DNA from: Sulfolobus acidocaldarius DSM 639
Lineage (GTDB): Archaea > Thermoproteota > Thermoprotei_A > Sulfolobales > Sulfolobaceae
NCBI RefSeq assembly: GCF_000012285.1
Contig: NC_007181.1
Span: 1,560,001 to 1,592,000 of the forward strand
DNA length: 32,000 bases
Direction: 5' to 3'
Both the position numbers and the translations under genes were made by a program. Shown piece after piece: positions 498 through 20,068 of the stretch. Within the stretch, counting starts at the first letter, position 1. Each line of letters begins with the position of its first letter. Under the pieces are notes generated by a model that saw nothing but the letters and a program-made list of their open reading frames with translations, searched no databases and had not been told where the DNA came from.

Positions 498-1211
498 ATG
501 AATCTAAACATTAAAACCGTAGCAATGATATCCGTAGCAGCTCTACTATTATCAATGCTAGTATACCAAGCTTTTGTAGCAGGATTCGTAGTGAGCAATT
601 CCGTGACAGGTAGTGTAGTTAGGATAAACTCAGAGAACGCTCTTCTTCAGATAGATCCATTAGAATTTTCCTTAATCTCTAACAATGGTGGATTATCAAT
701 ACAATTACCAGCCATAGGTCCAGGTACAGCTGACTATGCAGCTTTCCTTTATGACTCACATTCCAATGTTGTAGCTAGCTATTCAGCAGCATATCTATTT
801 GCAATAGTTGAGGTAGAGTTTAACTACCCAGGTAATAATAATCAAGTGATCAATGTAGCAGCGTCCTTAGAACATGTGACTAATAACACTCCTATCCAGA
901 TCCTAGTACTAGGAACCCATGGTTCTACAATGGACCCCATAACCTCATTCCCTAACAATTCAATATCTGTTGATCCTACGAACACTCCAGGAACAGTCAT
1001 GATAAATGGTCTTCAATTTACAGTTTTAGGAAGTTATGGTTTACCATCTTCAGTGTCTTCTGCTATAGGTAGTACAACTGCAACAATAGGCTCTGGTAGT
1101 AGTAATGGAGAAGTAGTATACGTGTTAATATTATTACCATCCTACGGAACTGTACCAGCCTCAGGCTCTAGTTTTTCAGCTGCACTAAACTTCTACGGAT
1201 ATCAGAGTTAA
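498..1211 (+). CDS. Secreted beta-rich Ser/Thr/Asn/Gly-rich protein; candidate major subunit of a TasA/thread-like extracellular filament
   Basis: ATG ORF of 237 aa. A TATA-like box (ctatttaaatat, 457-468) lies about 35 nt upstream. N-terminal signal peptide KTVAMISVAALLLSMLVYQA|FVAGF. The mature part is low-complexity and beta-prone with several N-x-S/T sequons. It is the first gene of a same-strand cluster that contains a dedicated signal peptidase. The function is inferred from context and the signal-peptide motif only. Confidence 0.5.
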   Translation: MNLNIKTVAMISVAALLLSMLVYQAFVAGFVVSNSVTGSVVRINSENALLQIDPLEFSLISNNGGLSIQLPAIGPGTADYAAFLYDSHSNVVASYSAAYLFAIVEVEFNYPGNNNQVINVAASLEHVTNNTPIQILVLGTHGSTMDPITSFPNNSISVDPTNTPGTVMINGLQFTVLGSYGLPSSVSSAIGSTTATIGSGSSNGEVVYVLILLPSYGTVPASGSSFSAALNFYGYQS

Positions 1212-1250
1212 ACAGGTGAATAAGAGGGATGTAAATATAAATTAAAGGGG

Positions 1251-1256
1251 TTTTTT
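1251..1256 (+). terminator. Oligo-T run (T6) between the putative subunit gene and the peptidase gene; possible partial terminator
   Basis: The sequence aaaggggTTTTTTaATG sits directly upstream of the 1258 start. Archaeal termination uses oligo-T tracts. The position after a putative major-subunit gene fits an attenuating terminator, but this is untested. Confidence 0.25.
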
Positions 1257-1257
1257 A

Positions 1258-2364
1258 ATGTCTCCAAATATAATTTTTTCGTTTTATTCATTAAAAGTAT
1301 TAAAGATCATAGGAAAGGTATTCGCTTTAATTGTTCTTATCTTCTCGATATTTCTCACCTTTACCAATTTAATGGGTAGACCGACTTTCGTAGCAATTAC
1401 TTACGGTTACAGCATGTTTCCTTACCTAAAACCTGGAGACGTTGCCATAACAATTCCCGAACCAGTAGCAGGAAAAATAACCAATGGCTCAATAGTCGTA
1501 ATAAAAGACCCAGATTACGGTGTACTACCAGGTTATCCACCGTATATAATACACCAGGTAATTAACGTATTACCAAATGGGTCCTTCGTAACTAAGGGAA
1601 TTAATGATAACTTCGTGGATCAGATCTACATGCCTCCTGTAACAGTTTCCAACATATACGCCAAACTCCTAGTCATAAATAATAATCCTGTGGTAATACC
1701 ATACTTAGGGGAAATACTCAACAGCGCTAGGCTCAACTTAATTCCCTCTGTAGGGATGTTGGCGTTATTGGGAATTTCCTTTGCTGTCTTAGACAGGAGG
1801 AACAATAAAAGTAAAAAGAGGAGAAAAATAAACAACAGTGAATATGTTAACCTGAAAATTGTCGTGTTTTTCTTGTCCATCTTTGTGTTTTCCGTCTTCG
1901 TGATCATGGCTAGCGCACAGACCTCTAACACTACAGTAGTTTACTTGGTGTCCAGAACGCCAGGATATTTATACGGGGGAACACTCCAGTCCTCTTCAGT
2001 AAATCTGGGTGTACTATTGTATAATCAAACGAAGTCTTATGTATTTAATATAACAAACAGACTAGAAATCCCTGAAATAGTTACAGTAAACCTGCAGGGA
2101 GATGGAAATGAAAGTTATAATGTTACTCCATCACACTCATTTATCCTATATCCAGGTCAAGAAAAGAGCATCAACTTAACCGTAAAAAGCGTGGGAAACC
2201 AGGGATTGCATGAGTTATTGGTGGAGGCATTTGTGATACCGACGTTATTTCCCTTATCGCTAAACGTGGTTAGCCCAATATTATCTCTTTTTCTATACTC
2301 AATACTTAATACCTTTCTTGTGTTAATTGTAATATCGTTGTTAATTTCTAGGGTGAGAGTGTGA
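1258..2364 (+). CDS. Signal peptidase I, Sec11/SipW (S26B) type, with a long C-terminal membrane/extracellular extension
   Basis: 368 aa. N-terminal TM helix, then the S26 boxes: YGYSMFPYLKPGD (catalytic Ser52), YIIHQV (His99) and TKGINDNFVD (the GDNN..D-like box). Residues about 160-368 add a basic stretch (NNKSKKRRK), TM helices and a sequon-rich beta domain (NTT, NQT, NIT, NES, NVT, NLT). Confidence 0.8.
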   Translation: MSPNIIFSFYSLKVLKIIGKVFALIVLIFSIFLTFTNLMGRPTFVAITYGYSMFPYLKPGDVAITIPEPVAGKITNGSIVVIKDPDYGVLPGYPPYIIHQVINVLPNGSFVTKGINDNFVDQIYMPPVTVSNIYAKLLVINNNPVVIPYLGEILNSARLNLIPSVGMLALLGISFAVLDRRNNKSKKRRKINNSEYVNLKIVVFFLSIFVFSVFVIMASAQTSNTTVVYLVSRTPGYLYGGTLQSSSVNLGVLLYNQTKSYVFNITNRLEIPEIVTVNLQGDGNESYNVTPSHSFILYPGQEKSINLTVKSVGNQGLHELLVEAFVIPTLFPLSLNVVSPILSLFLYSILNTFLVLIVISLLISRVRV

Positions 2365-2771
2365 TAAAAATAGTCCTGGTAACTACTGTAATATTACTCA
2401 TAATCTCATTAACGTATCTGAGCTCCTTTGTCCCAGCCTTTGACATATCAAATTCCGATAACATTAACATTATATCGAATCTGGTCTATACGTCAGTCGT
2501 TAAAGTAAATAATATGAGCTTTGTGGAAGTGATGATCAATACCAGTTATTTGCAGTTAATTAATGAAATTGAAATAATAATACCAGGTAACGTATACCAT
2601 CTATCTACAATTGGTAAATCATTTAGTAATGGGAGTTCGATAAATATCATAATCACTCCTCCCATATATAGTTCGAATTTGGTGGAATTTTACACAAATT
2701 CGAATCGTGTCGTAAATATTCAAGTTATAATATACTACTCACAAGGAGATGTTGGAATATTAAGTTTATAA
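2361..2771 (+). CDS. Small signal-anchored secreted protein (possible minor filament subunit)
   Basis: 136 aa. The GTG start overlaps the upstream stop (GTGA). The N-terminal h-region IVLVTTVILLIISLTYL is followed by VPAFDISNSDN, an A-F-x-D type motif like SipW-cognate signal peptides. The rest is beta-prone. Confidence 0.55.
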   Translation: MIKIVLVTTVILLIISLTYLSSFVPAFDISNSDNINIISNLVYTSVVKVNNMSFVEVMINTSYLQLINEIEIIIPGNVYHLSTIGKSFSNGSSINIIITPPIYSSNLVEFYTNSNRVVNIQVIIYYSQGDVGILSL

Positions 2772-2797
2772 TTCTTTTAAAAATAAGTTTAGTAATA

Positions 2798-3679
2798 GTG
2801 TTACTAGGCTGTGCATCTGCATTAATATACTTGGGAATTCTATCTAACTCGACGGTTTATTTTCCTCAAAGAGTTGGAGTAGGTTCCTATCTAGCTAACA
2901 CTAAATATCAAACAACATTTTATATAAACGATTCTATACTTTTTAACAATAAGACTGAAATTAACACTAATAGTATGTTTAGTTCGTTGACAAAAAGCCT
3001 TGTAGTTAATGGTTATTTTTACACTACAGCAAACTCTTATACAGGGAATTTCACAGTAAATGAGACTATAGTTACCCCGTTATGGTCTAAACCATTAGGG
3101 ACTATATACAGAGGAAATCTCACTTCGCACTTCTTTTCATTTACTCCCAATTTCACTTACGCACAGAGCTTATTCTACCAGATAGATAAACAGTTGAGGA
3201 TTCCTATAAATTACTACTCTATACGTTTAAACATAAGTGTAAATGCTGTAATTATGTACCCATCAGGTAACGTTCCATTAAACTTTAGAGATTCATTGAC
3301 CATACAGAACGGTACGTATAATATCTCCGTTAATTACAATAATGATTCATTTGCATCAGGTAGTTTTTACAAGGAAATTTCAGTTGAGGAAGAAACAGGC
3401 TATAATTACTCGTATTTCTATGGCGCAGCGTTTCTGGTAATAATTGCCCTCTCAATATTATTTATCAGGATGTCGTTAAATATACAGAATGTAATAAATA
3501 AGAACTCAATTAGTGGTTCAAAACCACCTATGAATGCATCAGTGATAGAAATAAGAAAGGCTGAAGATTTCCTGAAACTTATTAAACAGTACAACGAGAA
3601 GGCTGTAAAATGCGATAATGATTACTATATTACTCATGACAACATAGTATATCTTTATCATGGAGAAAATAAAGTATAA
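2798..3679 (+). CDS. Heavily sequon-decorated extracellular protein with a C-terminal TM anchor and a cytoplasmic tail of about 70 aa
   Basis: 293 aa from the first canonical start (GTG 2798). At least 12 N-x-S/T sequons. C-terminal TM helix YGAAFLVIIALSILFI followed by a charged tail. The start is uncertain; see the finding for 2672-2800. Confidence 0.55.
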   Translation: MLLGCASALIYLGILSNSTVYFPQRVGVGSYLANTKYQTTFYINDSILFNNKTEINTNSMFSSLTKSLVVNGYFYTTANSYTGNFTVNETIVTPLWSKPLGTIYRGNLTSHFFSFTPNFTYAQSLFYQIDKQLRIPINYYSIRLNISVNAVIMYPSGNVPLNFRDSLTIQNGTYNISVNYNNDSFASGSFYKEISVEEETGYNYSYFYGAAFLVIIALSILFIRMSLNIQNVINKNSISGSKPPMNASVIEIRKAEDFLKLIKQYNEKAVKCDNDYYITHDNIVYLYHGENKV

Positions 3680-3684
3680 ATCAA

Positions 3685-3700
3685 GAGAAAAATTTTTTCT
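3685..3700 (+). terminator. Palindromic A7/T7 element with a T6 run directly after the cluster's last stop codon
   Basis: The sequence agaaaaattttttct (T-run at 3693-3698) begins 6 nt after the stop at 3679. It is followed by a 185-bp AT-rich gap. Confidence 0.35.
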
Positions 3701-3884
3701 AAATTATTTTATATTCTATTTGTATTTAAATCTTTTTCAATACAACCGTCATGTAGATGAGATAGTATATAAGCTATATAATTAGTCAGTTAATAGATTG
3801 GAAAATCAAGTGCCATTAAATTAAATGTTATACAAAACTTTATTATGTTAGACGACGAGAATATAGGGATAAAGAGATGTCAGT

Positions 3885-4205
3885 ATGCGGAGAAAGAAAA
3901 GGAGTTCAATACAAATAGTTATCAGCATATTAGAAGGGTGTAGATCTGGTGTCAAAAAGACAAAGTTGTTATATGTTACTAATTTGAGTTCTCGCCCATT
4001 TTACAAATATATGAAGGTACTAGAGGAGAGTGGTCTTATCTATTTTGAACCGAGTACCAGAGAATACATCTTAGCTCCGAAGGGGAGAAATGTGTTAGAA
4101 AAATCCAAAAGATACCTAGAGTTGTTGGAACAGTTAGATAAGATTAGACCAGATATTACTGACCTCATAGATAGAGTAAAGGAAGATAAAAGGAAGGGGA
4201 AATAA
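3885..4205 (+). CDS. Small winged-helix DNA-binding protein (archaeal COG3432-like wHTH regulator)
   Basis: 106 aa. Basic N-terminus. The pattern IQIVISILEGCRSGVKKTKLLYVTNLSSRPFYKYMKVLEESGLIYFE is typical of helix-turn-helix plus wing. The C-terminus is a coiled-coil tail. Confidence 0.6.
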   Translation: MRRKKRSSIQIVISILEGCRSGVKKTKLLYVTNLSSRPFYKYMKVLEESGLIYFEPSTREYILAPKGRNVLEKSKRYLELLEQLDKIRPDITDLIDRVKEDKRKGK

Positions 4206-4267
4206 ATAGAGGATGATGGACTTTTCAGCTAGGTGTAGTCCTAATTGTATCGTACATATTAGCGCTA

Positions 4268-4777
4268 TTGGCATATTGCTTCTTTAGGCTATCAATGAAA
4301 AAATATATGGAAGAAATAGAGAAAAGAGAAAGCGAAGCAATGATAAAAAGAACTTTAGATTTTCTTATATCCTTGTCTAAACTAATGAGTAATAGCGAGG
4401 TCAACGACCTATTAGAGGAGATTTTAACTTACATAACTAGTCTAAAGGGAAGGCAGTGGAAAGAGATATACGAGACAACCATAAAAAGGCTGGATCCTAT
4501 AAAAAGGGAATTAGACGACATAAGGCAAAAGGTTAACAATATTAAAGAGGTAGAAAATGCTTCAAGAAGGGCTAAATTATGTTACACAGCTCTTAATTAT
4601 TCTATGATTACTTTGATCTTAACATTCACAATTTCCATTTTATTTTACACAATCTTCATGGATTACATATACTCTTTCTTATTCCTAGAAATTGTTGAAA
4701 CAATTATAATATTCCTAGAGATATTATACCTTTACAAGACGTATAAAAAAATAGATATAAATATGTTTATTGAATAG
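4268..4777 (+). CDS. Coiled-coil protein with two C-terminal TM helices, function unknown
   Basis: The ORF track starts at TTG 4268. ATG 4295 (MKKYMEEIEK) is the more likely start. The N-terminal ~100 aa are helical and charged. The C-terminus has hydrophobic helices ITLILTFTISILFYTIF and FLFLEIVETIIIFLEILYLY. Confidence 0.55.
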   Translation: MAYCFFRLSMKKYMEEIEKRESEAMIKRTLDFLISLSKLMSNSEVNDLLEEILTYITSLKGRQWKEIYETTIKRLDPIKRELDDIRQKVNNIKEVENASRRAKLCYTALNYSMITLILTFTISILFYTIFMDYIYSFLFLEIVETIIIFLEILYLYKTYKKIDINMFIE

Positions 4778-4897
4778 AGAATCTTTCGACAGAGATGCTT
4801 CTAACTCTAATAAATATATTCAAAGGAGTACTAGAACTCAATAGCGTTAACAATAACTTTAAATATTTTTAGGGTATCCCAAATAATAGGAGTAAAA

Positions 4898-5779
4898 ATG
4901 TTTAGCCTAAATACGTTGTTAAACCCACCAGATAATCTTTCCGTCGGAGAAATAATACTCATATCCTTAATACTAGGAATGTTACACGGTGTTACGCCAG
5001 ACGAACATACATGGCCTATAACATTTAGTTACGCTATAGGTAAATACAGCACTAAGGGAGGAATGAAGGCAGGTTTCCTCTTCTCATTAGGCTTTACGAT
5101 TCAGAGGGCATTTCTAACTACTATAGGATTCCTAGGGTTAGCCGCAATATACAATCAGTACAATTTGGACGGTCCAGTATATGCAGTTGTAGGTATTGTA
5201 ATGGCTATTGCCGGTTCGTATATACTGAAGGGAAAATATATACACTTACCCATTGACGCTCTATTCAAGAGTAAGCAACACACAGAAGAAGCAGGTAAGG
5301 TAAAGGATATCCCAATTAAGATGACAATAGTGCACGGTCTGGTTGCAGGCTTCGGGTTCGGTGCATATGCAACTATAATTACCTTCGTATTAGCTCCCCA
5401 GTTACCTTCAGTGGTATATGCACCATTACCTGGACTGTTCTTTGGTTTAGGTACAATGGTGATGCAGATAATATTTGGTATGATATTTGGTAACATATTG
5501 CGACTGAAGAAAATGACTGAAGAACAGTTATCGTTTATTGCTAGAAAGACCGCTGGAAGAGTCCTATATTATGGAGGCTTAGTATTTCTTATAGTCGGTC
5601 TCTTAATAATTGTTTTGCCTGCTATTGATAATTTCGCTATATCTACAGGTAATCCAATACCTAACCTTGATGCAATAAATATAGGATTTTTACTTGTGAT
5701 ATCCGTTGTTGGAGTAATAGGAATTAGTAGCATCCTCTATGGGTTTAGAGAGGCTAAGAGGTTAGCTAAACATATATAA
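4898..5779 (+). CDS. Polytopic membrane protein; possible NicO/RcnA-like metal-ion transporter (weak)
   Basis: 293 aa with about 8 TM helices. The ATG is preceded by an aggag. His-containing TM motifs LHGVTPDEHTWP and IVHGLVAGFGFG resemble NicO-type H..P..H signatures. The family assignment is tentative. Confidence 0.45.
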   Translation: MFSLNTLLNPPDNLSVGEIILISLILGMLHGVTPDEHTWPITFSYAIGKYSTKGGMKAGFLFSLGFTIQRAFLTTIGFLGLAAIYNQYNLDGPVYAVVGIVMAIAGSYILKGKYIHLPIDALFKSKQHTEEAGKVKDIPIKMTIVHGLVAGFGFGAYATIITFVLAPQLPSVVYAPLPGLFFGLGTMVMQIIFGMIFGNILRLKKMTEEQLSFIARKTAGRVLYYGGLVFLIVGLLIIVLPAIDNFAISTGNPIPNLDAINIGFLLVISVVGVIGISSILYGFREAKRLAKHI

Positions 5780-5906: not shown

Positions 5907-5987
5907 AAATTTTCATGGAAAAGTTTTCAGTAATTGAAAATATGAAGATCTGACGATATTTTTGCAAAAATTTTCATGGAAAAGTTT
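5907..5987. repeat. Two perfect 20-bp direct repeats (aaattttcatggaaaagttt) at 5907-5926 and 5968-5987, upstream of the ABC-2 operon
   Basis: Read directly from the sequence. Each copy contains the inverted core TTTTC-atg-GAAAA. Copy 2 abuts the TATA-like tgtataaatt (5991-6000) of the gene starting at 6017. The copies are 61 bp apart. Confidence 0.6.
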
Positions 5988-6016: not shown

Positions 6017-6946
6017 ATGATAGAAGTAATGAATATATCGAAATCATTCAAGTTTAAGGGCAGAGTAATTAATGCTTTGGACAACGTGAGTTTTAAAATC
6101 GAAAACAAGAGTATTGGAGCATTGGTAGGACCTAATGGGGCTGGTAAAACTACCCTAATTAAGATACTCTCTACCCTTATAATACCTTCCAGTGGAGATG
6201 CACTGGTAAATGGATATAGTGTAGTAAAGGAGGAGAAAAAAGTTAGAGAATCTATTGGCTTGATGACGGTCAGTGAGAGGCTCTTCTATTATAGGCTGAC
6301 CGCCCTAGAGAACTTGATCTTTTTCGCCAGCCTACAAAACCTATCATTATCAGACGCCAGACGAAGGGCAATGGAAATGTTAGAGTTAGTTGGTCTTTCT
6401 GAGTGGGCTAATTTACCCTATATGAAATTTAGTACAGGGATGCAGAGAAAATTGGCTCTAGCCAGAGCTTTGATAACCGACCCTCCTGTGTTATTACTTG
6501 ACGAGCCAACATTAGGGCTCGACCCGTTATCAGCTAGGATGTTTAGAGACCTAGTGAGAAGGATAGGAAAAGAAAAGACAATCCTGTTAACCTCTCATTA
6601 TATGAAAGATATAGAGGAACTATCTGAGAAGACAATACTCCTAAAGAAGGGTAAAGTGTTAGTAGAGGGAGATAGGGAATCTTTAAAGAGTTATATAGGA
6701 AAGGTGTGTGAGGTTGAGGTAAATGAATATCCCTCCTCTTTAGGGAAATACATTATAGAGACCGGGAGTAATTACTACATTTTAAGGGTACCGGAAAGGG
6801 AATTGGAGGAATTAAGGGACTACAGAGTGATTAAGGAGGAAGAACCTTCATTAGAGGACGTCTATGTTTATTTAATAGGCGATGTGGAGGACTCGGCTAG
6901 ATTTGAGGCTGTCAAGAGAGGGGGGAGGTGGAGAGGATGGGAATAA
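6017..6946 (+). CDS. ABC transporter ATP-binding protein (ABC-2/DrrA-like exporter type)
   Basis: 309 aa. Walker [10 protein letters not shown], signature [15 protein letters not shown], Walker [13 protein letters not shown]-loop TSHYM. Confidence 0.9.
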
Positions 6947-7740
6947 GTGGAAAAATATACTCTTTTCTATATTTGAGGGGTTTCAAGGTTTGGGTATCTT
7001 ATAGGACTCAAACGATTTTGACAGTCCTAGGGTGGGTCTTACCAGTCTTCACATATTACTTCGTTGGTACGTCCTTAGGAAACACGTTAGTCGCTGAGAT
7101 TGGAGTAAAGAATTATGTAGCCTTCTTTACTATAGGATTGGCTTTCCAAGGTTATGTATCCTCCGTTATATCTACCATAAGCCAAAGACTTAGAAATGAA
7201 CAGTTATACGGGACAATTGAGTATTATGTTATATCGAGAACCGGTACCTTAGGATTTTTACTTTACTCTGCGTTATGGGGATTATTATTGAACACTGTGA
7301 ATGCTGTAGTTATCTTAACAATAGGATATGCCTTGGGAGCGAACTACCATATAAACATCATAAGCACAATCACCATACTATTCCTGCTAATAATTTCAAC
7401 ACTTGGGATCGGAATGATTGCAGGAGCAGTGACAATGATAACAAAACAAGGAAATCCAATATCATTATTCTTTAACACATTCACCAACTTGCTAGGTGGG
7501 ACTGTTTTTCCTATAACAGCTCTACCGATCGTGGTCAGGTACATCAGTTACGGTATACCTCTTACATGGGCTCTAGAGGGGTTAAGAGGTAGTATGTTAC
7601 AGAACACACCGATAACTAGCATGTTAAACATCGTGGAGATACTTCTAATATTTGACGTTATCGTTGTTCCATTAGGCGTACTATCCTATAATTATGCTTT
7701 TAGGAAAGCTAGGGAAAAAGGGAGTTTAAGTGAGTATTAA
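6928..7740 (+). CDS. ABC-2 type transporter permease
   Basis: 270 aa with 6 TM helices. It overlaps the ATPase gene. The in-frame ATG at 6937 is preceded by the SD-like gaggtggagagg, so it may be the real start. Confidence 0.8.
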
Positions 7741-8284: not shown

Positions 8285-10210
8285 CTACATCTTATCTCCT
8301 TTAATCTTCTCTTTAAGCCAACTCCTCACATCATAAAACATTATATTGTCATATGGACATGCCTCAGCACAATCTCCTACCCCGATACAACGTGAGGACT
8401 TGAACTCTCCCTTTTTAATAAAGTTTCCAGGTAAGTCAGTGTTTCCCACAGGACATGCTTTACTGCAAGCTTTTGTCTCACATTTCACACACAATTCTGG
8501 ATCCTTAACCTTAAGCCTAAATAGTCCTAGACCACCAAAGAATTGATTGAAAGTACCCCATGAACACCAACCTTGAGTTACACATGCATAATTACCCGAG
8601 AAGGGAATAGATATAAAGACTACATACCATAAGAAATTAAAGTAGAAGGAATAGAGAAACATAGTTGGATCGTTTCCAAAAATAGTTATGTTGAGTATAC
8701 CTTTTTGATCGAAATAAGAAATTACAGCAAAGGCTAAAAGGGAAGACCAGACTGCTATGGCGATGAGCTTATACCATGGTCTCAATTTGCTTGATAAGGT
8801 TTTCCTTGCAAAGCTTGAAGTCCTATTATAAACCTTAAGAGAATTGTAAAATGTACCTTGATACATTGTAGGGGCAGTACAAGTCACTGAACATATCTGT
8901 CTAGATCCAAAGAGAAATGACAGAACAGCAGAAAGCACATAAGTTCCCACAATTCCCGAGAGCAGATAGTCTGTTGAGACAGGTCCTAAAGTGCCCAATC
9001 CCATACTCCACATATAAGGGATATAAGGGATTTTTGAGGCTAATGGGGAAAATGATGGGATGTATACAGCATAGATAGCAAAGGCTGAAACCATTAGAGC
9101 TAATCTGATTCTATTCTCTCTCAATCTTACCTCTTTAATTCTAAATATAGCTAATGTTCCCATCTCTAAACCCATCATAACAAGAAACCAAACAGAGCCA
9201 GTTACGGAACCAAATATGGAGAGAAAGTCAAATAACGCACCGGCACCAAAGTAAGAAAATGGATTTACAAAACCTAAAGGCAGAGAACTTATAAAGCCCT
9301 CTACTCCAGGAGAGAAGTAACTACTAGCAAAGTCTAATACCGCTCCCATAAACCACTCCATTACGAAAGTCATTAGAACGAATGCGAAAGTCCACCTCGA
9401 ATCTCTCAAATAGTTCCCCTTGATGGAGCTTGGTCCCTGTATAGCCCTGTAAATAAACCAGGTCATTCCAAGGATCATGGATATATCGTAAAGATACCAA
9501 GAGCTTGTTACATAATAGGTAAATATACCAGCCATCATTAAAGTGAATATAAGCATTAACTCAAGTGATGTAAACGTCTCTTGAGTTTTCTTTAATCTGT
9601 CCCGATACAATGTGTCGTATATTATAATGGTGGCAACGATCATAAGTAGTGAACTAAGCCATATGGAGAAGGTCGGTAAGATTACAGGAGAGACCACCAT
9701 GATGGGGAGTGTTACAAGTAAGTAATTTCTTATCTGCCGAGTTAAGCTATTAAAAGAATAGACTAATGTGAAAGTCATTTCTGCTAGCATTACTGCGTAA
9801 AACCAATAGTTCTCTGTCCCTATTAACGGATTACCTATGCTCTTGGTTAAAATTGAGTAAAAGCTCTCTCCCATGACTGCCTCAGATATGGTCATCAAAA
9901 GGGAAAAGAGTAGTACAGTGTACCACTTTCTACTCTCTATTTTGCGTCTACTAGCGCCAAGAAGTAGTATACTCACTAGACCCACAATCATGTAAGCTGT
10001 GTTAACTGTCAAGGCTAAAATTTCCGTAGTTAGAGCGGTGTTAGATAGAGCAATAGACAGAGAAATGAACATTGTGAGCATACTCCCGCTTAGGTAAAGT
10101 ACCAGAAGGAATCCTATTCCGTTTATACCCTTTTTTACGAGATATATAAGGTAGACTGACACTGCAGTCATGACTGATGCGATGATCACAAATATTGGCA
10201 GGAAGTCCAT
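8285..10210 (-). CDS. Fusion membrane protein: N-terminal polytopic domain of unknown function plus a NapH/polyferredoxin-like module with a C-terminal 2x Fe-S ferredoxin domain
   Basis: 641 aa. Residues 1-436 hold at least 12 TM helices. From residue 437: RQICSVTCTAP, two TM helices, then CVTQGWCSWG (NapH-like paired Cys motifs). After that come CVKCETKACSKACP and CIGVGDCAEACP (ferredoxin-type motifs, nt 8288-8491). Confidence 0.7.
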   Translation of the reverse strand: MDFLPIFVIIASVMTAVSVYLIYLVKKGINGIGFLLVLYLSGSMLTMFISLSIALSNTALTTEILALTVNTAYMIVGLVSILLLGASRRKIESRKWYTVLLFSLLMTISEAVMGESFYSILTKSIGNPLIGTENYWFYAVMLAEMTFTLVYSFNSLTRQIRNYLLVTLPIMVVSPVILPTFSIWLSSLLMIVATIIIYDTLYRDRLKKTQETFTSLELMLIFTLMMAGIFTYYVTSSWYLYDISMILGMTWFIYRAIQGPSSIKGNYLRDSRWTFAFVLMTFVMEWFMGAVLDFASSYFSPGVEGFISSLPLGFVNPFSYFGAGALFDFLSIFGSVTGSVWFLVMMGLEMGTLAIFRIKEVRLRENRIRLALMVSAFAIYAVYIPSFSPLASKIPYIPYMWSMGLGTLGPVSTDYLLSGIVGTYVLSAVLSFLFGSRQICSVTCTAPTMYQGTFYNSLKVYNRTSSFARKTLSSKLRPWYKLIAIAVWSSLLAFAVISYFDQKGILNITIFGNDPTMFLYSFYFNFLWYVVFISIPFSGNYACVTQGWCSWGTFNQFFGGLGLFRLKVKDPELCVKCETKACSKACPVGNTDLPGNFIKKGEFKSSRCIGVGDCAEACPYDNIMFYDVRSWLKEKIKGDKM

Positions 10211-13303: not shown

Positions 13304-14416
13304 ATGGATGATAAAAAGAATGGGAGGTTCTTAATACTTATAGGGAGTTTACTTTTAACCGTGTCTGAATGGTACACCTTCTTCCTCGTTTCTCAGGTAT
13401 CCTTCTTTGTACTTTCCCTGTATGTGGGAATCCTCATCTATACTCTGGGCTTTATAGGAAGAGTGTCAGGAAGTATATTATTTGGGTATATAGGAGACAA
13501 GATGGGAAGAAGACATTCAATCATTCTATCTGCAGTTATGATTATCTTATCCACTAGTCTAATACTGATTTCACCTTCAAATTTACTGTTCCTGGTCATT
13601 GCTAGAACCTTACAAGGTTTAAGTCTCGGTGGAGAATGGGGAGCTGCAAGTACCATATTAGCGGAGAGTTATCTGAACTCAAATTACAGAGTATTTATAT
13701 TGAGTCTAAATCAGTTATCAGTGCCCTTAGGGATCATATTATCTACGTTCTCCATCTTAGTTCTCTCAATCATAAATAAGGTGGAGGACTGGAATTTATT
13801 CCTCTTACTTCCAATATTACTATCCTCCATATCACTTTTTACCTTCAAAGACCTAGGAGAGACTAAATCGCCGTCTACATCTAAAATTCCGTTATGGGAA
13901 GCGATTAGAGACGACTGGAAGAACATATTATTGGCTATAGGTGTTAAAATCAGTGAAAGCTCTAACTACTATATATTCACGTCTTATGTATTTTCGGAGT
14001 CACTCTCGGTATCAGAAATATCTACAATTGTTTTGATAGCTACCATAACCCAGCTTTTTACAATGCCTCTCTTTGGCTATCTAGCAAACTCATTTGGAGT
14101 GAAGAGGGTCATATTATCTGGAATAGTCATATACGTTATTGGCGCAACACTCTTTCTGTATAACATAACTCTGGCTGAGCTCACACTATCTGTCTCTAAT
14201 TCTGCTCTGTATTCTCCACAATCCTCACTCTTTGTGGACTTGTTCAAGAGCAAGTATAGAGTGTCAGGCACAAACTTTTCCTATCAGCTAGCTAGTATAC
14301 TTGGAGGATCCATGGTTCCTTCCGTATTAGCTTTATATCATCTACCATTGCTTAGCTTAGTGATTCCCATTTCAATAATTTCACTTGTTTCGATAAGTTA
14401 CGTAAAGTTAAAGTAG
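13304..14416 (+). CDS. MFS transporter, metabolite:H+ symporter (MHS)-like
   Basis: 370 aa. I count 12 TM helices. SEWYTFF (an EWYDF-like motif) in TM1 and the MFS loop motif GYIGDKMGRRHS between TM2 and TM3. Confidence 0.8.
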   Translation: MDDKKNGRFLILIGSLLLTVSEWYTFFLVSQVSFFVLSLYVGILIYTLGFIGRVSGSILFGYIGDKMGRRHSIILSAVMIILSTSLILISPSNLLFLVIARTLQGLSLGGEWGAASTILAESYLNSNYRVFILSLNQLSVPLGIILSTFSILVLSIINKVEDWNLFLLLPILLSSISLFTFKDLGETKSPSTSKIPLWEAIRDDWKNILLAIGVKISESSNYYIFTSYVFSESLSVSEISTIVLIATITQLFTMPLFGYLANSFGVKRVILSGIVIYVIGATLFLYNITLAELTLSVSNSALYSPQSSLFVDLFKSKYRVSGTNFSYQLASILGGSMVPSVLALYHLPLLSLVIPISIISLVSISYVKLK

Positions 14417-14482: not shown

Positions 14483-15121
14483 TCACACTAAAAACTCCGA
14501 TGAACTTACACCATGCGATACATAAACCATTTTAGGTTTAAGTTTCTTTATCCTCTCTACACTCCTTTTAAGCTCCTCAAAATCCTCGTATATATTAGGG
14601 TATTTCAGTCCTCTCTTCGTACCTTGTAACATATCACCTACTATCACAGAGCCTATTTCAGGTAAGTAAATCGATATAGAATCACTCGTATGACCCGGTG
14701 TCTTCATTATCTCAACGCCCTCCACAAGTTTTCCATCCTTCAATTCAAGGTCAACTTTTGTGCCCTTAAACCCTCTAACGATAAAAGGTCTTGCCAAGCC
14801 GAAAAGGAACTTCTGAAGGGAGGAGTGTAATACAGGGTTCCTGATTTTACCCTCTTGCAGATAGGAAACTCCACTACTTTCTATACCAAACTTAGCATCA
14901 GGTAGAATGTCTTTAAGCTCGTGGGCACTTCCAATGTGGTCTCCGTGCGAGTGGGTGAAAACCACGTACTTTACGTCATCTAAGCTCTTACCTAGTCTAG
15001 TTATCTCTGTGACTATCTTCTTACCATTTCCAGGAGTACCTGAATCAACTAATATCAATCCTTCTTTAGTCTCAATTAAAAACACTTTCACAAAGGACAG
15101 TGGTATCTCAAACACATTCAT
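14483..15121 (-). CDS. MBL-fold metallo-hydrolase
   Basis: HxHxDH motif THSHGDHIGS, downstream TPGHTSDS and VSHG. The ORF track starts at ATG 15154, but ATG 15121 (MNVFEIPLSF...) fits family N-termini and has tgtatttta about 26 nt upstream. Confidence 0.85.
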   Translation of the reverse strand: MNVFEIPLSFVKVFLIETKEGLILVDSGTPGNGKKIVTEITRLGKSLDDVKYVVFTHSHGDHIGSAHELKDILPDAKFGIESSGVSYLQEGKIRNPVLHSSLQKFLFGLARPFIVRGFKGTKVDLELKDGKLVEGVEIMKTPGHTSDSISIYLPEIGSVIVGDMLQGTKRGLKYPNIYEDFEELKRSVERIKKLKPKMVYVSHGVSSSEFLV

Positions 15122-15278
15122 GACATAAGTGAGGTAAACCACCCTAAAATACATTTGTAATAGACTACTAGTATTATGTGTGCTAAAATTAGATAGTGAA
15201 ATTTAATAAAATCTCTAAGGACTAACGTTAGTGAGTTAGAATTTCCACAAAAATCTCTCCTATTTATGGTATGGATGT

Positions 15279-16562
15279 TTAAGATCTAATTAATTTCTCT
15301 TCAGTCTGTAATAGACTAGCGTAGTTTAGGTCCTCTGAGACCACCTGAACTTCAGTTAATCCCTCATTAAGAACCTTGTTGGCATCTTGTTTCTTTATTT
15401 TCATGGCAAGCTTATCATTTACCTCAATACCAATCTCCTTAATCTCGAAATTATGGTCAACATAAAAGCTTAGACAATGCAGAAATTCACCAATATCTCC
15501 AGATCTAGCTTTCTCCACAGTGTTTAGGTATACAGTTTTAATATTACTGGAGCTTGCTAGTCTGTTAACACCTGAATCTGCTGTTACTAACACCACGCTC
15601 TCAGGTAAATACGACTTCAATGTAGCAGTTTCCTTCACAAGTGGTACATCTCCTGACCCCTGATTACCTACACTTATAGGAGGGGGGTGGAGTTTGTTAA
15701 ATGTTGCCATAGCTAAATTAAACTTGAAAATGTTCCTGTCCTTCTGAGTCGATGTCACCTTATTGTTAAGCTCATTATAGGTAGCTTTTGATGGTAGGAG
15801 TCTCCTTCCATAAGTCTTTGAATAAGTTAAGTATCCGAGCCTGAACCCCAGTCTTATATAAACGTTAGTGTCAGCAACAGTAAAGTATCCCTTCTCGACG
15901 TTGTCCTTTAGATCCTTCTCCTCTTTATAGCGCAAGAATCCAGACCTAAAACCACATATGCTAATTTCCTCGTCATTGGAATCATGTATATATTTTACCA
16001 ATTCTTCTATCGTATATGAGTCCCTATTGAGGGAAATTTTTACCTTACCTAGTAGAGAGTATATATTTATCAGGGCATTAAGGCTGTCGTTCGTTAGATA
16101 CACACTCTTCTCATTACTCCTAGTGACCCTTGGGGGATCCCACTTAATAATATCCCCCGACCTCATGTCAAAGACTTTTATCTCGTTGAATGGCAGATAT
16201 CCAAAGACTTTATATCCGGAACTTTCATTTTTTACATAGACGTATCTGATATGTTTTGCTTTTGAGTAAGCATATACTGACGTGGCCATGTACTTTCTCC
16301 CAGGGGTTACGTCAGCAATATCAACCTCAATTTCTGACACTTTTTGTCTCCACTTTTCAATCCCCTCACCTACAATCTCATTCCTCACGGTTGGTGTGAC
16401 ACCAAAGTATGATACCAATTCTTTAATCCCCTCCACACTCTTGGAGGGCTGATCCTCAGATAGTATTATTATTTCATCGGGTATTACTCCTGTAAATATC
16501 TCTGATAAAACCGCATTAGCTGTTGTCACAAGTTTATCTGAACCAAGGACGGCAAGTTTCAT
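15279..16562 (-). CDS. Csa3-like CARF domain protein fused to a PIN-domain nuclease (CARF / wHTH-like linker / PIN / unknown C-terminal domain)
   Basis: 427 aa. Residues 1-135 (nt 16158-16562) form a Rossmann-like beta/alpha series: MKLAVLGSD, DEIIILSED, VDIADVTPGRKYMATSVYAYS, HIRYVYVKNESSGYKVFGY. These parallel Csa3 CARF segments, including its D-x-T-x-G-x-[RK] strand-helix junction. Residues 224-347 (nt 15522-15893) carry a PIN acidic quartet: FTVADTNVYI (D231), YNELNN (E264), SGDVPLVKETA (D305), VVLVTADSGVNRLA (D329). The domain calls are motif-based, with no HMM search. Confidence 0.6.
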   Translation of the reverse strand: MKLAVLGSDKLVTTANAVLSEIFTGVIPDEIIILSEDQPSKSVEGIKELVSYFGVTPTVRNEIVGEGIEKWRQKVSEIEVDIADVTPGRKYMATSVYAYSKAKHIRYVYVKNESSGYKVFGYLPFNEIKVFDMRSGDIIKWDPPRVTRSNEKSVYLTNDSLNALINIYSLLGKVKISLNRDSYTIEELVKYIHDSNDEEISICGFRSGFLRYKEEKDLKDNVEKGYFTVADTNVYIRLGFRLGYLTYSKTYGRRLLPSKATYNELNNKVTSTQKDRNIFKFNLAMATFNKLHPPPISVGNQGSGDVPLVKETATLKSYLPESVVLVTADSGVNRLASSSNIKTVYLNTVEKARSGDIGEFLHCLSFYVDHNFEIKEIGIEVNDKLAMKIKKQDANKVLNEGLTEVQVVSEDLNYASLLQTEEKLIRS

Positions 16563-16763
16563 GTTTATATATATCTAAATAGATAATTAAAACCTTAATG
16601 TGAGAAAAATTAAGAGGAATTCATCTCTAACTTTACTGGAGCGTCGTAACGCTATTTTGTTAGAGTGTATTACTCAGAGTGATATTTAGGCAAAACTCGT
16701 TAGATAAAACCTGTATAGCAAGAAATGGAAAAAATGGAGAAAAAGAAAATATAATAGTATTAT

Positions 16764-17765
16764 TTAAAATCCGATATATGGTATTCCTCTTCCTAAACCA
16801 ATGATAAGTAGGATAGCAGTAATAATATACAATAATACAGTTAAACCAATTGCTATGTAATCTAGTTGGGTAAAGACAATAGGTTTCATGTAGGTTCTCT
16901 TTGGCATAGCGTTGAACCCTCTAGTATCTGCAGCTATTGCTGTGTATTTAGCTTGCCTCATTAGAAATATGAGTGTGGGCACTATCCCGTAAAGACCACC
17001 CAACAGAAGGTAAAACGGTCTCAATGCCTTAGGCTTACCATAACCCAATCCCCTCATCATTTGTAGCTTAACTATAGTGTCTAATGTATCAAATATCCTC
17101 GGTATGCTTCTCATGGCAACTGTCAATGCGAATATAAATACAAGTGGAAATTTAACCTTTTCAAGATAGCGTAATACGTCAGATGGAGTTGTAGTTATAA
17201 TAAGCAATAGTCCAGATAACATGGGTGCAATGAACCTAAATGCAACCTGAAAACCATAGTACAAAGCCTCTAACGTTAAACCTGGTTGATAACCCATGTA
17301 AACGAAATAAGATGGCCAGTACCAGATGACATGGAGTGTGTCTGTACCTATTGCTTGTGTCAGTATGTAATAGGGAGTGTAAAACGAGAAACTACTTACT
17401 ACGCCTAAAGACGTTGAGAAGGTTAAGAAACCAGCGTATAAAATTTTCTTCCCTGGGTTATTCAGAGTTGAGAACAAAAGTAGGTAAATTAAGGCTAATA
17501 TGGCTCCAAACCACCATATTGTTAGTGAAACAGCTATAGTTGTACTGATGACCAAGATTAGCTTGGTTAATGGACTGATTTTGTAGAGGACACTCTCTCC
17601 CTTTTCAAAACGGGTAATTTCCATGAATCCCCTTATTCCAATTAAGCCTAAAATTATGACTATGGGTCCTATAAGTCCAAAGAAAAAGACGAGCCAGCTT
17701 ATTACCTGATCTGCAACTGACGGCACAGGCGGTGCCCAGTTTACCATACTTAAATAGATCACCAT
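16764..17765 (-). CDS. ecfT: ECF transporter transmembrane (T) component, EcfT/CbiQ/YkoC-like
   Basis: 333 aa, polytopic. C-terminal coupling-helix motif AIAADTRGF. The start lies 4 nt after the stop of the duplicated ATPase gene. Confidence 0.8.
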   Translation of the reverse strand: MVIYLSMVNWAPPVPSVADQVISWLVFFFGLIGPIVIILGLIGIRGFMEITRFEKGESVLYKISPLTKLILVISTTIAVSLTIWWFGAILALIYLLLFSTLNNPGKKILYAGFLTFSTSLGVVSSFSFYTPYYILTQAIGTDTLHVIWYWPSYFVYMGYQPGLTLEALYYGFQVAFRFIAPMLSGLLLIITTTPSDVLRYLEKVKFPLVFIFALTVAMRSIPRIFDTLDTIVKLQMMRGLGYGKPKALRPFYLLLGGLYGIVPTLIFLMRQAKYTAIAADTRGFNAMPKRTYMKPIVFTQLDYIAIGLTVLLYIITAILLIIGLGRGIPYIGF

Positions 17766-17769
17766 CTTC

Positions 17770-19347
17770 CTACCACCTGAGGAGGAAGTCTGATGGTGGG
17801 TTTATTCCATATCTAGAGGAACTTATAAAAACTTCCTCTGGTCTTCCTTCAAGAACTTTCTTCCCATCACTTATTACTATTAACCTGTCAGCGAAATCAT
17901 AGACAAATTTTGAATCATGTGTAACCACCACAACAGTGTAGCCTTTGTCGGTAAGTTGGCGTAACTCTTTACCTAGGCTCATCTTATTTGAGTAGTCCTG
18001 ACCTGAGGTCGGTTCATCCATTAACATAATTTTCACGCCTGAAGCTAAAACTGATGCCATAGCTACCCTCCTCCTCTCACCCATACTTAGTAACGTGGGA
18101 TCCCTATCCCTATACTCGAATAACCCAAACTCCCTCATGTACTTCTCACTTATCTCCCTGTAGTTCTTTACTTTTCTCTTCTTCAAACTATACTCGATTT
18201 CTTTTCTCACTTGGTTTGTGACTAACATAAGGTCAAAGGACTGTGGCATATAAATCATGTATTTACCCCTATACCAGACAGGTTTATTGATTAGTTCCTC
18301 CCCTTGATATTTTATTGACCCCGTTATACTATATTCAGACGTATCTAGAATTCCAGCTAGTGCTTTCAGTGCAGTTGTCTTTCCTGCACCATTTTTCCCC
18401 ATTATGGCAACTAGTTCCCCCTCCCACAAATCCAGAGAGAAATCTACAATCTGTTTTTCCTTAACATTAATCCTCAGATTAGCTGTTAGTATCTTGTTCT
18501 CAGGAGTCCTCCTCTTAGGGTGTTCCAATTTAACATTATTTTGTACTATCAATTTCTTCACTGTATCTAGATCCGGTGACTTGACTCCGAACTTTTTTGC
18601 ATAAATGAAATACTCAGGTACTTCGACTCCTGCTGAATGTAGGGTCTCAGCTCCCTCTAATATTTCGTCCTTTTCAAGGTCAAGTGAAACCTTACCCTTA
18701 TCCACGAGAATAACTCTGTCTACAAATGGTAGTACCCTCTCCACCTTATGTTCCACTATGATGAGTGTCTTTTGCCCCCTGAGGTCTTTCAGTGTAGAGA
18801 AAATTTGATTAGTTCCTTCTGGGTCTATATTTGAAGTTGGCTCATCTAATATTAGCACCTCTGGTCTCATGGTGAGGACAGAGGCTAATACTGTCCTCTG
18901 TAGCTCTCCTCCAGATAGCGTTGTGGTCTCCCTTCCCCATAAATGCGATATCCCAGCTATCTCCATGGACTCCTTTACTCTCTCCACAATCTGTTCTGGA
19001 GGAAAATTCAGGTTCTCCGGTCCAAACGCAACTTCTTCCTCCACAGTGTAATTCACAACTTGGCTTTCAGGGTCTTGTAAGACCGTGCCTACAACTGTGG
19101 ACAGCTTAGACAAAGGCGTATCTTTTATACTCTTCCCTAGTACGTAAACTTCCCCTTTTAGATCTCCACTCGTCATATGGGGAATAATTCCGTTAATGCA
19201 ACTAACTAGTGTGGACTTACCTGATCCTGATCTACCTGTAATGAGTACCGACTCTCCCTTCTCGATAAACAGTTCGTCAACTGTGATAGCTGGTGTCGGA
19301 TATCCCAAGTAAAAAAATTGTAATCCCTTTATCTCTACTGCGTACAT
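17770..19347 (-). CDS. ECF transporter duplicated ATPase (fused EcfA-EcfA', YkoD-like)
   Basis: 525 aa with two complete ABC cassettes. Cassette 1: GRSGSGKST, LSGGELQR, LILDEPTSNID. Cassette 2: [28 protein letters not shown]. Confidence 0.9.
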   Translation of the reverse strand: MYAVEIKGLQFFYLGYPTPAITVDELFIEKGESVLITGRSGSGKSTLVSCINGIIPHMTSGDLKGEVYVLGKSIKDTPLSKLSTVVGTVLQDPESQVVNYTVEEEVAFGPENLNFPPEQIVERVKESMEIAGISHLWGRETTTLSGGELQRTVLASVLTMRPEVLILDEPTSNIDPEGTNQIFSTLKDLRGQKTLIIVEHKVERVLPFVDRVILVDKGKVSLDLEKDEILEGAETLHSAGVEVPEYFIYAKKFGVKSPDLDTVKKLIVQNNVKLEHPKRRTPENKILTANLRINVKEKQIVDFSLDLWEGELVAIMGKNGAGKTTALKALAGILDTSEYSITGSIKYQGEELINKPVWYRGKYMIYMPQSFDLMLVTNQVRKEIEYSLKKRKVKNYREISEKYMREFGLFEYRDRDPTLLSMGERRRVAMASVLASGVKIMLMDEPTSGQDYSNKMSLGKELRQLTDKGYTVVVVTHDSKFVYDFADRLIVISDGKKVLEGRPEEVFISSSRYGINPPSDFLLRW

Positions 19348-19351
19348 TAAC

Positions 19352-20068
19352 TTACACCTGTACAGCCTTGCCTACTCTATTTGCTGATAGTCCAGCCAAT
19401 AATCCAACAACTACATCTCCCGGAATAGAAGTTACTAAGATAAAGAGAATCCTCGACCAGTTCACTATAGCCCCATAAATAAATGGGTCAAAGAAGCCAT
19501 AGAAGAATATCGGGTCAGGTATAGACCATAAAACCCCAAGGATTGCTCCTTCCACTGCTGATATAGCGTATACGTATGTCGGACCTTTGGTTAATCCTAG
19601 TCCAAATATCTTTCCTCCTGTAAAAGCTATCATGAGGTCAATAAATAGACCATATGTTAAAGCTTCATAAATGAAGAACATAGGTTCTCCACTGAATCCG
19701 TAATGGAAGAGGCTAGATAGGAGGTCAAATAAAAATAGGGATATCATTCCTACGCCAACTTTCCTAACTAGTCCTGCAACAATGAATATTATGAATATCC
19801 TTCCCCAAAACGGTATTTGAATGAAATTTGTAAGTCCTGATGGTATTGCTCCTCCTGCAACAGCACCTATAATGAATTGCCAAATGTATGCAGCTGCAGC
19901 CCCTATTCCTATGTATACCCAGTCAATAGTTTTGAACGCCTTCAATCCACCTGTCCTTTTACCAAAAATGAAGACTACAACTAAGGCTATAATAAAGTAA
20001 GCAGCTATAACTTCAACCGGAATTTCTCCTGGTTTATTGGTATAAAATCCTATTCCGTTAAATGACAT
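19352..20068 (-). CDS. ECF-associated membrane component, YkoE-like (putative substrate-capture subunit; HMP/thiamine-type by analogy)
   Basis: 238 aa with about 6 TM helices. It is the first gene of a tightly spaced (4-nt gaps) three-gene unit in the same order as bacterial ykoE-ykoD-ykoC. The substrate is inferred by analogy only. Confidence 0.55.
   Translation of the reverse strand: MSFNGIGFYTNKPGEIPVEVIAAYFIIALVVVFIFGKRTGGLKAFKTIDWVYIGIGAAAAYIWQFIIGAVAGGAIPSGLTNFIQIPFWGRIFIIFIVAGLVRKVGVGMISLFLFDLLSSLFHYGFSGEPMFFIYEALTYGLFIDLMIAFTGGKIFGLGLTKGPTYVYAISAVEGAILGVLWSIPDPIFFYGFFDPFIYGAIVNWSRILFILVTSIPGDVVVGLLAGLSANRVGKAVQV

Follow-up and report, generated by a model that had tools for sequence, protein, structure and literature searches.

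A CARF-PIN family protein encoded away from cas genes in Sulfolobus acidocaldarius, a candidate cA4-sensing nuclease

The gene at positions 15279-16562 (minus strand) of a 32,000-nucleotide stretch of Sulfolobus acidocaldarius DSM 639 (contig NC_007181.1, positions 1,560,001 to 1,592,000; the whole stretch is hereafter called the window) encodes a protein of 427 amino acids (aa) that is a member of the CARF_m3/CARF-PIN family, found in Sulfolobales and neighbouring lineages. With moderate confidence we propose that this protein is a PIN nuclease that senses cyclic tetra-adenylate (cA4) and that, although encoded far from cas loci, it has the role of an ancillary effector in type III CRISPR. 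The proposal is based on a full-length match in PADLOC, on similarity to SiRe_0806, for which a complex with cA4 has been deposited, and on the invariance of both CARF and PIN residues. It is further based on the presence of a type III-D system and a variant type III locus in the host, the linkage of orthologues to cas genes and the listing of the family among type III accessory proteins by Shah et al. 2018.

Family assignment and domain structure

The gene is real and intact, and an exact-sequence look-up identified its product as AAY81114.1 / Q4J7W6 of S. acidocaldarius DSM 639, annotated "PIN domain-containing protein". A first-pass annotation, made from the sequence alone, had described a four-module protein of this length at this position; the open reading frame (ORF) is present on the minus strand, all of the peptides quoted were found in its translation, and the residue numbers given for D231 (in ADTNV), E264, D305 (in GDVPLV) and D329 (in LVTADSG) are all correct. 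The gene and the four parts of its product are as follows.

15279-16562, minus strand: complete CARF-PIN gene, 427 codons plus stop, ATG start (ORF list, exact-sequence match, PADLOC PDLC01982)
16158-16562, minus strand: CARF domain, residues 1-135, a six-stranded beta/alpha series (AlphaFold2 model, Foldseek, invariant columns)
15885-16157, minus strand: middle linker domain, residues 136-226, with a conserved core of N166, C203, R206, G208 and E215 and a variable insert at residues ~180-200 (alignments)
15522-15884, minus strand: PIN nuclease domain, residues 227-347, with invariant D231, N233, E264, D305, E311 and D329 (profile, Pfam and BFVD matches)
15282-15521, minus strand: C-terminal domain, residues 348-427, alpha-beta-beta-alpha-beta-alpha, with conserved G-E-x-L-x-C and N-Y-A motifs (AlphaFold2 model, alignment)

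The PADLOC model PDLC01982, "CARF_m3--CARF_PIN", matched the protein from end to end (E=1.4e-165, with residues 1-426 aligned to positions 1-391 of the 392 in the model), with weaker matches to "CARF_PIN" (1.9e-53) and "CARF_m1--CARF_PIN" (1.1e-18). A sequence search of the PDB gave a single relative, 9jxw/9jxx (E=6.6e-100, residues 3-422). These two entries, released on 2025-07-23, carry the deposit titles "Crystal structure of SiRe_0806 from Sulfolobus islandicus" (9jxw) and "SiRe_0806 in complex with cA4" (9jxx). An AlphaFold2 model built from an alignment of 31 orthologous sequences, 34-92% identical, reached a mean predicted local distance difference test score (pLDDT) of 90.8 and a predicted template modelling score of 0.89, and when it was compared with the PDB using Foldseek, SiRe_0806 (9jxw/9jxx) was recovered at a template modelling (TM) score of 0.85-0.95 and 42-43% identity. 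SiRe_0806 shares the four-part full-length architecture with the window protein and differs from it in coming from another species and in the length of the middle insert.

Across the 31 orthologues the invariant columns include L6, G7, S8 and K10, then D84, T86, P87, G88, R89 and K90, and finally D231, N233, E264, D305, E311 and D329; the sequence of 9jxw likewise has the signature residues of CARF and PIN. The family is small: when 1.84 billion representatives were scanned exhaustively with HMMER, 56 proteins were returned at E <=1e-3. Of these, ~18 are full-length close members, and a more distant set, 430-485 aa long, falls under the sister models CARF_m1 and CARF_PIN. These sister proteins were matched only at E=1e-15 to 1e-33. 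The named family members are almost all from Sulfolobales. The architecture of a CARF sensor joined to a PIN nuclease, as first read from the sequence, is thus borne out by PADLOC, by Foldseek and by the match of the PIN-segment profile. The profile searches that had been suggested as a check for CARF and PIN hits gave the full-length CARF_m3--CARF_PIN match in PADLOC and brought the family profile to a solved PIN domain (1o4w), with Pfam silent on the protein alone.

In the N-terminal part the model shows strands and helices alternating over residues 2-132, with a pLDDT of about 90 for the CARF domain. Motif I, which in CARF domains is a small or Ser/Thr-rich loop behind strand 1, is L6-G7-S8-x-K10 in the window protein, and motif II, after strand 4, is D84-x-T86-P87-G88-R89-K90, which reads DVTPGRK and fits the pattern [DN]x[ST]xxx[RK]. 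The latter contains the D-x-T-x-G junction that had been proposed to line the ligand pocket, and as given above it is invariant among the orthologues. It aligns with DFTGGRKAMS of a Crn1 orthologue. The Foldseek matches that follow SiRe_0806 cover the N-terminal part only and are all CARF proteins: Can2 with cA4 (7bdv), Card1 (6xl1, 6wxw), VC1899 and Cdn1, and also the ring nucleases Sis0455 (7z55) and Sso2081 (7ygh, 7ygl) over ~136 columns. The CARF assignment of residues 1-135 is therefore well supported, with Foldseek probabilities of 1.00 to the CARF domains of Can2, Card1, Sso2081 and Sis0455. At the sequence level a profile of the CARF segment found weak matches only in the PDB, to Crn1, Sis0455 and Can2.

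When these proteins are compared with the window protein, Can2 and Card1 are the best non-orthologous fold matches (Foldseek E ~1e-5) and have, like it, a cA4-binding type of CARF domain upstream of a metal-dependent nuclease. However, their nuclease is of the PD-(D/E)xK type and not PIN, the overall TM score is ~0.28, and the window family has additional middle and C-terminal domains. The Crn1 enzymes (Sso2081, Sis0455) resemble it in the CARF fold and in motif II but are CARF-only enzymes of ~180 aa without PIN, so that a protein of 427 aa with a PIN domain is not of the Crn1 type by architecture.

Residues 227-347 are a PIN domain with a D...E...D...D acidic set. A profile of residues 205-350, made from 21 orthologues, matched the solved PIN domain 1o4w with E=2.1e-4, and in the alignment the family motifs DTNV, ELE, GD and vTaD stand opposite VVDTNV, ELE, GD and ITND, hence all four acidic signature positions correspond. 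The Pfam family PIN_4 was touched by 14 of the 31 orthologues (best E 1.5e-4), proteins of the sister group scored 18.6-20.7 bits against the cut-off of 21.9, and in the viral structure library BFVD the top match of the model was a PIN-domain protein (probability 1.00, 152 columns). The full acidic set claimed in the first-pass annotation (D231, E264, D305 and D329) is accordingly recovered, both in its invariance and in its alignment with 1o4w. VapC-type and archaeal PIN proteins such as AF0591 (1o4w) have the four acidic positions in a segment of similar size, ~120 residues, but the sequence similarity is marginal (family profile E=2e-4), the PIN domain of the window protein is fused to a sensor and not paired with an antitoxin, and the window protein alone stays below the Pfam PIN thresholds.

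The remaining two segments gave fewer clues. A profile of the middle segment found nothing in the PDB beyond 9jxw, and the same search with the C-terminal segment found no sequence relative other than 9jxw, in line with the earlier remark that this domain of ~80 aa could not be placed.

Previous records of the family

The CARF-PIN family is already known, both from catalogues and from the crystal structure of a relative with cA4. Makarova et al. 2014 recorded two families in which CARF is fused to PIN (PMC4012209). Among the type III accessory families listed by Shah et al. 2018 is cluster 104, which has the representative Msed_1167, the description "Csx1, CARF+PIN", the subtypes A, B and D and a positive association score (PMC6546367). 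From its position and the order of accessions, the Metallosphaera sedula orthologue examined here is taken to be Msed_1167. The view that the window protein represents a distinct, uncharacterised effector can therefore not be upheld, given the catalogue of 2014, the listing of 2018, the testing of ST0035 with cA4 and the solved structure 9jxx. A literature search found no published account of the output activity of a CARF-PIN protein.

ST0035 of S. tokodaii was considered as an orthologue and set aside. The S. tokodaii member of the window family is BAB65936.1. Going by the order of accessions, this is not the number that gene 35 of the genome would be expected to have, and ST0035 is probably a paralogue from a sister CARF-PIN group.

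Genomic context in the host and in related genomes

When analysing the window for genes related to CRISPR, no cas genes were found using Pfam on every ORF of >=100 aa and PADLOC on ten Pfam-negative ORFs, nor did tblastn find any when 20 proteins of related loci, Cas proteins and cas-linked ones, served as queries. No CRISPR array was found in the window, and no Rfam family either. The gene thus has ~15 kb on either side without a cas gene or array, as had been stated from the sequence. The description of its surroundings as transporters also agrees with the neighbouring genes, assigned with Pfam, which are as follows.

13304-14416, plus strand: major facilitator superfamily (MFS) transporter
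14483-15154, minus strand: metallo-beta-lactamase (MBL)-fold hydrolase
16563-16763, minus strand: intergenic region upstream of the CARF-PIN gene, 201 bp, with the A/T-rich sequence TTTTAATTAT ~21-30 nt before the ATG (read by eye)
16764-17765, minus strand: CbiQ of an energy-coupling factor (ECF)-type transporter
17770-19347, minus strand: duplicated ATP-binding cassette (ABC) ATPase of the ECF-type transporter
19352-20068, minus strand: 238-aa protein of the ECF-type transporter

The position of TTTTAATTAT, as read by eye, is compatible with a promoter of its own and a leaderless mRNA for the CARF-PIN gene.

The term "orphan", which had been applied to the gene, holds for the window, which is without cas genes or arrays, but not for the host or the family. 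Type I-D and type III-D systems are reported for S. acidocaldarius DSM 639 (PMC10577407; PMC7694759), and a Sulfolobales-specific variant type III locus is found predominantly in S. acidocaldarius and S. islandicus strains (PMC7694759). Gene silencing in S. acidocaldarius has been carried out with a native type III system, and all Sulfolobales carry CRISPR systems (PMC7694759). Orthologues of the gene also abut cas loci. To describe this, the loci of orthologues in 24 other genomes were compared together with the window, giving 25 loci, and features were counted within 10 kb. In seven of the 25 the orthologue lies near features linked to CRISPR or to cyclic oligoadenylate (cOA), these being cas cassettes, arrays, Csx1 or Crn1, and this is a lower bound because several of the 18 unlinked loci are short contigs. 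The linked loci are as follows.

M. sedula: type III cassette with five repeat-associated mysterious protein (RAMP) genes and an 886-aa large subunit, cas6, a cas1 fragment and two arrays
Metallosphaera tengchongensis: csa3, cas6, type I-A cassette, 108-repeat array, csa1 and cas1
Metallosphaera cuprina: HerA-NurA and type I-A cassette
Stygiolobus caldivivus: type I-A cassette 2.6 kb away
Sulfolobales Acd1: 14-repeat array 1.3 kb away
Acidianus brierleyi: Csx1-CARF protein and HerA-NurA
Sulfurisphaera ohwakuensis: 184-aa Crn1 ring-nuclease orthologue (E=5e-36 to Sis0455)

The orthologue in M. sedula, from the species of the representative of cluster 104, adjoins the type III cassette, and those in M. 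tengchongensis, M. cuprina and S. caldivivus are beside or <=3 kb from type I-A cassettes. The Crn1 gene in S. ohwakuensis (locus L019, 7893-8447) is ~1.5 kb from the CARF-PIN orthologue and matches Sso2081 with 2e-33, and its precomputed Pfam annotation consists of a faint Cas_NE0113 match only.

The neighbourhoods are poorly conserved, with the ECF transporter common only to M. cuprina and, in Ca. Aramenus, an MBL hydrolase ~6 kb away. In M. cuprina (locus L024, 5972-21006, compared with window 15279-20068) the same ECF transporter flanks the gene, its proteins being 46-57% identical, and the CARF-PIN gene sits between this transporter and HerA-NurA followed by a complete type I-A cassette that includes csa3 and cas6. 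From this arrangement the S. acidocaldarius locus may be a remnant, left after an adjacent cas locus was lost or moved.

Four genomes have a HerA-NurA pair <=10 kb from their CARF-PIN orthologue, as follows.

M. tengchongensis, L020, 1-1906: HerA-NurA pair, type I-A cassette also present
S. shibatae, L021, 3500-6532: HerA-NurA pair, no cas gene seen in this locus
M. cuprina, L024, 11261-13877: HerA-NurA pair, type I-A cassette also present
A. brierleyi, L026, 14243-16884: HerA-NurA pair, adjoined by the Csx1-CARF protein

The Csx1-CARF protein of A. brierleyi has 475 aa (L026, 16974-18401). In the same genome a SIR2-family gene (L026, 11217-11954) is located 38 bp downstream of the CARF-PIN gene and shares its strand, and judged by this spacing the two may form an operon. 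Outside Sulfolobales, a Methanomethylovorans metagenome-assembled genome (L014, 1177-6946 and 8423-8830) has a protein that resembles the CARF part alone, at 25% identity over residues 16-134, next to a type III cassette with Cas10-like and RAMP genes; by sequence comparison this protein is a remote CARF relative.

Proposed function and alternatives

In the mechanism proposed here, Cas10 of the host type III system would make cA4 on detecting invader RNA, and this would be bound by the N-terminal CARF domain, as suggested by the deposit title for the orthologue SiRe_0806. The CARF domain would act as a dimer, as in other CARF effectors, and the binding of cA4 would switch on the metal-dependent PIN nuclease, which most likely cuts RNA and so would slow the cell or the virus. 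As the signal is diffusible, it could reach the effector even though the gene is encoded away from cas loci. A narrower version, possible but rather doubtful, is that the PIN, middle and C-terminal domains together form a cA4-gated and substrate-specific RNase, cutting tRNA or rRNA at a defined site in a VapC-like manner and not as an indiscriminate shredder, and that the copy, left after loss of cas genes, is a distant effector for the III-D or the variant type III system.

Several observations weigh against a role as a type III effector nuclease. ST0035, described as "a CARF-PIN toxin", showed weak cross-linking to cA4 and no induced RNase activity (PMC6546367); if it is, as is probable, outside the window family, this negative assay may concern the sister group. 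No published nuclease activity or ligand gating for the family was found in the literature search, Pfam and NCBIfam gave no match with the window protein alone, which falls below every Pfam threshold, and 18 of the 25 orthologue loci had no cas or cOA-linked gene within 10 kb by a limited screen.

It could be argued that the protein mainly removes or sequesters the signal: as a ring nuclease or a sponge for cA4, the CARF domain would turn type III signalling off, and the role of PIN would be auxiliary or a different one. The closest CARF structures beyond SiRe_0806, Can2 and Card1 include the Crn1 enzymes Sso2081 and Sis0455, the weak profile matches also lead to Crn1, and motif II aligns best with a Crn1 orthologue. 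In ring-nuclease CARF domains catalytic Ser and Lys residues are placed around the ligand, and all orthologues of the window family have S8 and K10 in the loop that follows strand 1; the ST0035 result, a CARF-PIN protein without cA4-induced RNase activity, would be in agreement as well. However, neither the four acidic residues of PIN nor N233 and E311 vary among sequences of only 34-50% identity, which argues for selection on PIN catalysis. Moreover, the title of 9jxx names cA4 and not its cleavage products, even if a mutant or slow turnover could explain this, and Sulfolobales already encode dedicated Crn1 enzymes. Removal of the signal is for these reasons regarded as unlikely. We find it improbable, too, that the protein is a housekeeping or toxin-like PIN RNase in which the CARF fold senses another ligand, with no connection to CRISPR in S. 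acidocaldarius. The transporters and hydrolases around the gene, the absence of cas genes within 10 kb in most orthologue loci and the poor conservation of neighbourhoods are what such a gene could be expected to show, but an orthologue has been crystallised with cA4 and the motifs of the ligand pocket are invariant. In addition, the seven CRISPR- or cOA-linked loci among 25 are far above expectation for a housekeeping gene, and the family is tiny (56 of 1.84 billion) and belongs to Sulfolobales and neighbouring lineages, in an order where all members have CRISPR.

The first-pass annotation had instead seen a regulator of the Csa3 type, the CARF domain lining up one-for-one with that of Csa3 and residues ~150-200 resembling its winged helix-turn-helix (wHTH), to which a PIN output had been added; DNA binding by the wHTH would then be part of the mechanism. 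The middle segment does contain helices, and Csa3, a transcription factor of CARF and wHTH, shares with the window family the generic CARF fold and the generic motif II pattern (NLSSGMR in Csa3, DVTPGRK here), but nothing further. To compare the two, three genuine Csa3 proteins (Pfam Csa3_N) from type I-A loci of the orthologue genomes were aligned and used as reference. In hhalign the family profile reached a probability of 0.2% against this alignment, the single short local match leaving the motif II regions unpaired, and residues 136-226 reached 0.5%; a specific kinship with Csa3 was rejected on these results. The structural comparison that had been suggested with AlphaFold and Foldseek matched SiRe_0806 and CARF proteins, but Csa3 was missing from the top 50 Foldseek matches and also from the PDB matches of the CARF profile. 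No member of the CARF-PIN family matched an HTH family in Pfam, and the sequence YTIEELVKYI, proposed to belong to the wHTH, forms a helix in the model (H185-194) that lies in the gap-richest part of the alignment, in an unconserved insert that many orthologues are without. Csa3 differs in length and output domain as well, and neither the line-up of the CARF domains nor the wHTH could be retained; the chance that the protein is a Csa3-type regulator with an acquired PIN domain appears very slight.

Other features of the window

The 20-nt sequence AAATTTTCATGGAAAAGTTT occurs in two perfect copies, at 5907-5926 and 5968-5987, which are 61 bp apart and lie a short way upstream of a plus-strand operon for an ABC-2 transporter (6017-7740). 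Each carries the internal palindrome TTTTC-ATG-GAAAA, and by their sequence and spacing the copies look like a paired operator site. The stretch 498-5779 contains six plus-strand ORFs (237, 368, 136, 293, 169 and 293 aa) without a Pfam or PADLOC match, surrounding a small HTH_45 winged-helix protein (3885-4205), and has the lowest G+C of the window (0.315 at 2001-4000). At 8285-10210, minus strand, a 641-aa protein is annotated as 4Fe-4S dicluster only in its last ~50 residues, the first ~560 having no Pfam match.

Conclusions

The discovery of the CARF-PIN family itself had already been made, and the value of the present analysis lies in a domain reading that is both confirmed and corrected. 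CARF-PIN is one of the few cOA effector architectures for which no published output activity was found. Genetic work is feasible in S. acidocaldarius, and its type III-D system is functional. An intact copy away from the cas loci in such a host is therefore a convenient handle on what a cA4-gated PIN nuclease cuts, and the same copy also offers a handle on whether effectors encoded far from cas loci join in immunity.

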